42,586 bases of DNA from a virus. Lineage: Duplodnaviria; Heunggongvirae; Uroviricota; Caudoviricetes. The DNA lies in the IMG/VR virus record IMGVR_UViG_2541047870_000002. One strand, given 5' to 3'. The notes beneath the pieces are model-generated. The model was not told the DNA's origin and made no database searches. It worked only from the letters and a program-made list of their open reading frames with translations. A program made the translations under genes and the position numbers. Below, piece by piece: positions 39,433 to 40,206 of the stretch. Positions within the stretch are counted from its first letter, which is position 1. The number at the start of each line of letters is the position of its first letter.

Positions 39433-40206
39433 TCAAAAATTAGGTGAGTAACGGACCGGGGACATAGCTCCTTTTTTTCTTAATTCATCTGGTATTTTTT
39501 TCCCAAGATAAAGATTTGCTATTTCAGGTGGGGCTTCTCGACCTTCAAAACCATAGCGAGAACTTTGTGTTGCCTCAAAGTCAGGATCCTCGTCCCAGTA
39601 TTTCATCGTAGGGAAATTTTCACGTGTTGATTTGAGCCATTTATCAGCAATAAAAACCCCTCGAACGATGCCCCTTACAGTGGCAAGAATGACTTCTGCT
39701 TGGCTGGCGCGAGAGACATTAATGCGCCAGCTAAATCGAACCGCATCATAAAGCTCTGAATCCTTTGCACTTCTGTTAACGGAAATCATTAATGCTTTAT
39801 GATGAAATGTTATGGTTTCGGGTTGATATGTTGCTATCAACTCTTTGACATGCGCGGCGCCAAATTCATTGCTGCCAGCACCATTCATGATATTCGTTAA
39901 CCCAGGGTAGGCATCAATAAGTGCTGCTTCAACTTCGTACGCCGTCTTTTCATCAGTCATTCCGTGTCGATGGATGACGTGGATAACTTCAAGTCCTGCT
40001 AACCTTATTTCTCTAATTTGCTTTAGCTTGTTGCTCAGTAACTCGTCATCGTCAGCTGCTGCCACTTCACCGCGCATATGGGCAAATACGCGGTTGCCTT
40101 TGCCTTTCCCTACATAGAAGGTGCTTCCGTCCCTCGGATCAATCAATCGGTAAACATACCAGCCAAGGTGCTCAATTACTCCAGAGGGAAACTCAGTAAT
40201 ATCCAT
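39433..40206 (-). CDS. GIY-YIG nuclease-domain protein with uncharacterised C-terminal domain (cargo gene at attR-proximal slot)
   Basis: N-terminal GWYVYRL…[14 protein letters not shown]…E motif series typical of GIY-YIG; 257 aa. Confidence 0.6.

Follow-up and report, generated by a model that had tools for sequence, protein, structure and literature searches.

What kind of nuclease is encoded at the attR-proximal end of this e14-like prophage, in the slot where the K-12 element carries the restriction gene mcrA? At this position the window (the whole stretch of viral DNA that was analysed, 42,586 nucleotides) holds a minus-strand gene of 44% GC at 39433-40206. The first-pass annotation, made from the sequence alone, described a reverse-oriented GIY-YIG nuclease gene there and proposed a restriction-like enzyme whose C-terminal domain recognises the target. 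Very probably the gene encodes CMoRE (Cytosine Modification Restriction Endonuclease), also named PD-T4-3, a type IV restriction enzyme directed against the modified-cytosine DNA of T-even phages, with the activity assigned by transfer from an orthologue.

The open reading frame runs from ATG to stop over exactly 39433-40206 and encodes 257 aa. Pfam recognises a LEM-3-like GIY-YIG domain (PF22945) over residues 28-110 (E = 2.4e-14), which together with the intact frame bears out the early assignment of a nuclease gene. The generic GIY-YIG model of Pfam gives a sub-threshold match, and a search of the protein against NCBIfam returns no family. The PADLOC check suggested at first pass finds model PDLC04031 (PD-T4-3) matched from end to end (residues 1-256 align with positions 1-255 of the 256-position profile; E = 2.2e-140). 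The protein has a further match in PHROG 5356, a family without known function. In the PDB it matches two sequences only, each deposited as 'GIY-YIG domain-containing protein': chain 9U75_A (entries 9U75/9U8D, E. coli O157:H7), with 254 of 257 residues identical (98.8%; E = 1e-172), and the protein of 9U7U/9U7Z (APEC O1), which is 85% identical (E = 1e-150). A chance open reading frame is ruled out because the match to 9U75_A reaches E = 1e-172. These are the two proteins with which PD-T4-3 was characterised and renamed CMoRE (Liu et al., Nat Commun 2026; PMC12923530). RefSeq WP_000355479.1 is identical to the window protein and is annotated merely as 'LEM-3-like GIY-YIG domain-containing protein'. 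The first description of the system, under the name PD-T4-3, concerned E. coli ECOR68 (Vassallo et al., 2022; PMC9519451), a name and origin attributed here via Liu et al. (PMC12923530): the string 'PD-T4-3' is absent from the main text of the earlier paper, which mentions a GIY-YIG nuclease among its hits.

The N-terminal GIY-YIG segment (39862-40206, minus strand), supported by the Pfam match, published mutants and alignment A1, carries the motif series GWYVY (residues 15-19), FYVG (30-33), R39, E93 and N105. All three tyrosines of the GIYxY-YIG motif (Y17, Y19 and Y31) are present together with the catalytic Arg and Glu, and alignment A1 shows no variation at Y17, Y19, Y31, R39, E93 or N105. 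The autoinhibitory loop that separates helices alpha-2 and alpha-3 has its four consecutive acidic residues, D52-D53-D54-E55, which read DDDE here and in the crystallised APEC O1 protein and DDDD in O157:H7. At the dimer interface of this segment, V92 and L96, the tetramer-interface residues needed for defence, are both present, and the residues examined by Liu et al. are all kept (Y17, Y19, Y31, R39, V92, L96 and Y127; PMC12923530). Y127 belongs to the C-terminal modification-sensing domain, which spans approximately residues 125-257 (39436-39834, minus strand) and whose function is taken from the same work. This remainder of the protein (~130-145 residues) matches neither Pfam nor NCBIfam, as the first reading of a domain without family assignment had it, and the authors find neither a sequence nor a structural homologue of the sensor domain (PMC12923530). 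It departs from the crystallised O157:H7 domain by two substitutions only, Q169 for K and N197 for H; E55 for D in the loop is the third and last difference between the two proteins. E55 and N197 agree with the other crystallised protein, that of APEC O1. Position 169, a K in both crystal proteins, is a variable column (K/Q/R/C/N) across E. coli and phage homologues, and Q169 also occurs in the common allele WP_000355484.1 (O157:H7 YB14-1 and BS15R-A). At the level of sequence, every defining feature of CMoRE/PD-T4-3 that was examined is present, and no sequence feature was found that speaks against this identity.

How would such a protein tell phage DNA from that of its host? The CMoRE orthologue gives direct defence against T2, T4 and T6, and T4 with unmodified cytosine escapes it (PMC12923530). 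The purified enzyme degrades T-even DNA as well as PCR products containing 5-hydroxymethylcytosine (5hmC) or glucosyl-5hmC and spares C and 5mC products; it cuts at CN11/N9G, leaving 2-nt 3' overhangs, and requires two modified cytosines (PMC12923530). [quoted passage not shown] In a co-crystal with 5hm-dCTP the C-terminal domain binds 5hmC, the hydroxyl being bonded to the main chain of Y127, and a tetramer is required for defence, which V92S/L96S abolishes (PMC12923530). From the native promoter, the O157:H7 gene gives strong defence and the APEC O1 gene weak activity; restriction by the O157:H7 gene amounts to about 5 logs (PMC12923530). Independent work, on strain NILS69 and on a Capnocytophaga homologue (both described below), supports this picture. 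Target recognition by the C-terminal domain of a restriction-like nuclease has thus been demonstrated experimentally for a protein 98.8% identical to that of the window; the earlier interpretation is supported, and it anticipated the published mechanism.

Transferred directly from this biochemically and structurally characterised orthologue, the mechanism in the prophage would be as follows. The protein would assemble as a tetramer, a dimer of dimers, and its C-terminal domain would bind 5hmC or glucosyl-5hmC in incoming T-even phage DNA. One dimer would read two modified cytosines ~21 bp apart (CN11/N9G), and the N-terminal GIY-YIG domain would make a Mg2+/Mn2+-dependent double-strand cut with 2-nt 3' overhangs. 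The acidic loop DDDE (52-55) over the active site would keep unmodified host DNA out, so that a methylase or antitoxin partner would be unnecessary; among the ORFs and Pfam matches of the window, no methyltransferase gene adjoins the CMoRE gene. Phage DNA would be degraded directly and the infected cell would survive, without abortive infection. The window allele is presumably expressed and active in its own host.

Could the gene instead encode a free-standing homing endonuclease of the Seg or I-TevI kind, one that would cleave a defined sequence of a cognate allele and be propagated through gene conversion? A GIY-YIG catalytic domain is present, the protein weakly matches PHROG 314, 'homing endonuclease' (E = 0.0022), and full-length homologues in jumbo phages carry the label 'putative homing nuclease', in unverified annotations. 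However, the C-terminal half has no Pfam match, homing-endonuclease DNA-binding modules included, the near-identical crystallised C-terminal domain binds 5hm-dCTP, and the flanks vary across genomes and so offer no consistent homing site. Moreover, the orthologue depletes T4 DNA genome-wide without strict sequence specificity while sparing unmodified DNA (PMC12923530). This published biochemistry effectively refutes homing, which is rejected as highly improbable, in agreement with the first-pass annotation, where a homing endonuclease had been argued against. That annotation had kept open an abortive nuclease and the possible need for a partner gene. An abortive or toxin-like enzyme would kill the infected cell and be tolerated only with a neighbouring antitoxin or modifier. 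The orthologue does possess latent toxicity, since its mutant 4A, with the acidic loop neutralised, cuts ordinary DNA and is toxic (PMC12923530), but the loop is intact in the window protein (DDDE). Cells bearing the orthologue grow normally at MOI > 1, as expected of direct, non-abortive defence, and in the published family survey every system is single-component (PMC12923530). The gene of the orthologue has also been cloned stably by itself. Nor is any neighbour gene conserved, as only ~900 bp are common between genomic contexts. High-MOI survival and the lack of a conserved partner gene lead to rejection of the abortive or toxin-like reading too, which has very little probability left, and the suggestion of a partner gene is dropped for a single-component system.

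Of 5426 complete E. coli genomes, 838 carry the CMoRE gene, nearly always intact. The gene is under strong purifying selection, with dN/dS ~0.02 (0.018-0.025 against three other E. coli alleles, from which it differs at 15-33 nucleotides, 1-3 of them non-synonymous). By blastn against the O157:H7 and BS15R-A loci, the conserved unit is a minus-strand cassette of ~900 bp at 39372-40275, which comprises the gene with 69 bp before it and 61 bp after it. It is 94-95% identical to those loci, homology stops at 39372 and at 40275, and this is the sole part common to CMoRE copies in other genomic contexts. Depending on the genome, the cassette adjoins a gene of the AraC family, an element of the IS4 family or a remnant of mcrA. 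O157:H7 strains and BS15R-A have it immediately after pinE, in related prophages with other integration sites, where it again lies at the tail-fibre end. Because the same cassette follows pinE in both, CMoRE is a compact cargo gene that recurrently occupies the position of mcrA in K-12. The O157:H7 gene resembles that of the window in being a single gene at the tail-fibre end of an e14-like prophage. Its product, too, has 257 aa, the GIYxY-YIG motif, the acidic loop, the residues of the tetramer interface and the sensor domain at the C-terminus. It differs in its place directly after pinE, whereas the window copy is at icd, with an acyltransferase gene and an IS3 to one side and the mcrA remnant to the other.

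Is the gene likely to be expressed in this arrangement? The upstream spacer at 40207-40518 is presumed to contain the native promoter; its first 69 bp are common to other CMoRE loci, and beyond them the DNA differs from the O157:H7 locus. A sigma-70 consensus scan of 39150-40950 finds 4 promoter-like sites against 5.9 expected and calls no promoter for CMoRE, and a terminator scan of the same interval finds 1 terminator-like site against 1.3 expected. By eye, a site TTGTGA-17 nt-TAACAT can be picked out ~20-50 nt before the ATG on the minus strand, not above chance in the consensus scan, and it is suggested as a candidate CMoRE promoter. Just past the stop codon, at the 3' edge of the cassette, RNA folding predicts a minus-strand hairpin with a 9-bp outer stem at 39374-39413 (centroid -15.9 kcal/mol; z = -1.9, a marginal advantage over shuffled sequence). 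The hairpin has no T-run and is thus not a canonical terminator, and the terminator scan did not call it; it is possibly the 3' end or a stabiliser of the transcript. A run of about ten G (C on the gene strand) lies just outside the cassette at 39354-39363, ~70 bp downstream of the stop codon.

An intact CMoRE gene could nevertheless be a silent passenger here, poorly expressed or weakened by Q169 or by the nearby IS3. The weak activity of the APEC O1 orthologue from its native promoter would fit this, as would the promoter scan and an upstream region that past 69 bp is specific to a rare arrangement. Yet the frame is intact and its dN/dS is ~0.02, Q169 is shared with the widespread allele WP_000355484.1, and the IS3 lies 220 bp downstream, past the conserved hairpin, with gene and upstream region untouched. 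Strain NILS69 supplies points on both sides. In this native host PD-T4-3 is one of just two active systems, its chromosomal copy being active at native level, and it restricts Tevenvirinae once moved to K-12; one phage, however, escaped the native-level system and not the plasmid-borne copy. Purifying selection and the native-level activity in NILS69 disfavour a silent passenger, which is unlikely, with only a small probability remaining to it.

In the MG1655 annotation the e14 end reads pinE-mcrA-icdC-iraM-ymgK-ymgL-ycgX, which confirms the first-pass statement that K-12 has mcrA at the equivalent end. In the window the order is acyltransferase-IS3-CMoRE-spacer-icdC-iraM, with ycgX after iraM, and the acyltransferase and CMoRE genes fill the slot held by pinE and mcrA in K-12. 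The attR end of the e14-like prophage is marked by icdC (40896-41060, plus strand), a displaced 3' fragment of the isocitrate dehydrogenase gene that consists of 54 codons and matches positions 301-348 of 348 of the Pfam model Iso_dh. The K-12 annotation calls this fragment icdC, and that of strain 268.2 lists it as a pseudogene fragment of icd. Strain 268.2 is annotated with a complete e14-like prophage between icd and icdC; its copy of this end is 99% identical and lacks the IS3.

The spacer between the CMoRE start and the icd 3' fragment (40207-40895) had been described as about 700 bp of AT-rich non-coding DNA. Its length (689 bp) and composition (33% GC) agree with this, but it is not wholly non-coding in origin, as an mcrA 3' remnant lies inside it. 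Three parts can be distinguished: 312 bp of CMoRE upstream DNA, a 144-bp mcrA stub and 233 bp of mcrA-icdC intergenic DNA. The stub (40519-40662, plus strand), located by tblastn with K-12 McrA, corresponds to codons 231-277 and the stop, with 34 of 47 residues identical to McrA residues 231-277 (72%; E = 6e-18). It lacks a start codon, the N-terminal sensor and HNH domain of McrA are not intact, and the zinc-site cysteines of the HNH domain are gone (CVALCPNCH has become GAAFYQNCH). It is a decayed, non-functional pseudogene fragment of mcrA. Nucleotide homology to K-12 starts inside mcrA at 40520 and continues as a 95% identical block to 42586; within it the mcrA-icdC intergenic stretch (40663-40895, 26% GC) is common with K-12 e14. 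Between cassette and stub, a 243-bp piece (40276-40518) has matches only in 9 complete E. coli genomes with the same arrangement. An Rfam search of 37600-42586 at permissive thresholds gives no match, and the spacer therefore holds no known RNA element.

How did mcrA come to be truncated? On the sequence comparison with K-12, an acyltransferase and CMoRE segment appears to have displaced pinE together with the initial ~690 bp of mcrA in this lineage, and the stub is best read as the trace left when one type IV restriction gene took the place of another in this slot of the prophage. Of 5426 complete E. coli genomes, only 9 have CMoRE with an mcrA stub at icd, and no mcrA remnant lies beside CMoRE in the three pinE-CMoRE loci examined (L003-L005); the remnant is specific to the icd-integrated lineage.

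On the other side of the cassette, the IS3 that the early reading had placed on one flank is present at 37955-39212 (minus strand, 1258 bp), though 220 bp separate it from the CMoRE stop codon, so that the two are not directly adjacent. The element is complete, with imperfect terminal inverted repeats starting TGATC, HTH_Tnp_1 and rve ORFs, and a 3-bp target duplication, CTT, at 37952-37954 and 39213-39215. Its insertion is recent, since strain 268.2, 99% identical over the rest of this locus, lacks it. The IS3 separates CMoRE from a second, co-oriented cargo gene at 36554-37621 (minus strand, 32% GC), of the acyltransferase-3 family (PF01757, E = 3e-24), which is present in strain 268.2 as well. 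Judged by its family, this gene may encode a surface-polysaccharide (O-antigen) acetylase for lysogenic conversion.

Elsewhere in the prophage, a reverse-oriented gene at 13362-14693 (minus strand) encodes a 443-aa KAP-family P-loop NTPase (Pfam E = 9e-71); the genes for the Q antiterminator (12965-13333) and the holin (14991-15317) flank it. The protein is a full-length match to PDC-S20, a candidate defence family of PADLOC (E = 1e-176), and has weaker similarity to PifA and QatA. The gene is probably a second defence cargo gene of the same prophage; in strain 268.2 its slot is taken by a TIR-domain protein (L006, 26835-27650). Beyond the integrase gene (1452-2579), in the attL-side cargo position, two overlapping hypothetical genes at 1-465 and 440-1336 (both minus strand) encode 154 and 298 aa; neither has a Pfam or PADLOC match, and both are present in strain 268.2 too. 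In K-12 e14 this position is that of lit. In the early region, a gene at 6095-7015 (plus strand) encodes 306 aa with a C-terminal BRCT domain (Pfam E = 1.4e-6), which is unusual in phage genes, and weakly matches the PADLOC candidate family PDC-S48 (E = 2.7e-7).

CMoRE homologues are also encoded by phages themselves. Jumbo phages (the Serratia Moabite group, Pseudomonas OBP and Klebsiella N1M2) carry full-length homologues with 31-45% identity, and so does the ~108-kb circular Escherichia phage PhiR41_1, with a ParA partition gene nearby. In the phage loci L007 to L010 these genes lie at 2501-3265, 2492-3253, 2498-3244 and 2456-3223, respectively. They keep the catalytic residues, have a lid loop without the run of four acidic residues and are mostly labelled 'homing nuclease' or hypothetical. 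Such genes may serve as weapons against competing phages with modified DNA.

Among known enzymes, EcoKMcrA of K-12 e14 resembles CMoRE in role and location. Like CMoRE, it is a type IV modification-dependent enzyme directed against modified cytosine, it combines a sensor with a nuclease domain, and its gene occupies the same attR-proximal cargo slot of e14-type prophages. The mcrA remnant beside CMoRE makes the analogy closer than it was at first pass. However, McrA is an unrelated protein, whose sensor is N-terminal and whose nuclease, of the HNH type, is C-terminal, and its substrate range differs, as it targets 5mC sites such as C5mCGG. GmrSD, the PvuRts1I/AbaSI family and McrBC are likewise type IV enzymes directed against 5hmC or glucosyl-5hmC that restrict T-even phages, as CMoRE does, but their nuclease and sensor folds are different. 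[quoted passage not shown]

Publications already cover this gene family with its mechanism and structure, and the window copy, nearly identical to a crystallised protein, is hence already known; the modest additions made here are the stub of mcrA, the limits of the cassette and the clean insertion of the IS3. Could the locus say more about the specificity of such systems? A Capnocytophaga homologue, 48% identical, degrades T4 DNA and not unmodified T4-GT7 DNA, and at high dose it also degrades Mu DNA, a precedent for a wider range that would include the carbamoylmethyl-adenine of phage Mu. It is possible, though doubtful, that the attR-proximal e14 slot is an exchange hotspot for type IV restriction genes, with a switch in specificity from 5mC and non-glucosylated 5hmC to glucosylated T-even DNA, or that the Q169 allele or the family also restricts other hypermodified DNA.

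The mcrA stub neatly illustrates how defence genes turn over at the end of a prophage. The main value of the analysis lies in annotation, as a RefSeq 'LEM-3-like GIY-YIG' gene can be re-labelled with confidence as CMoRE/PD-T4-3, a type IV restriction endonuclease. With this annotation the host would be predicted to resist T2/T4/T6-type phages, which is relevant to the prediction of host range in phage therapy.
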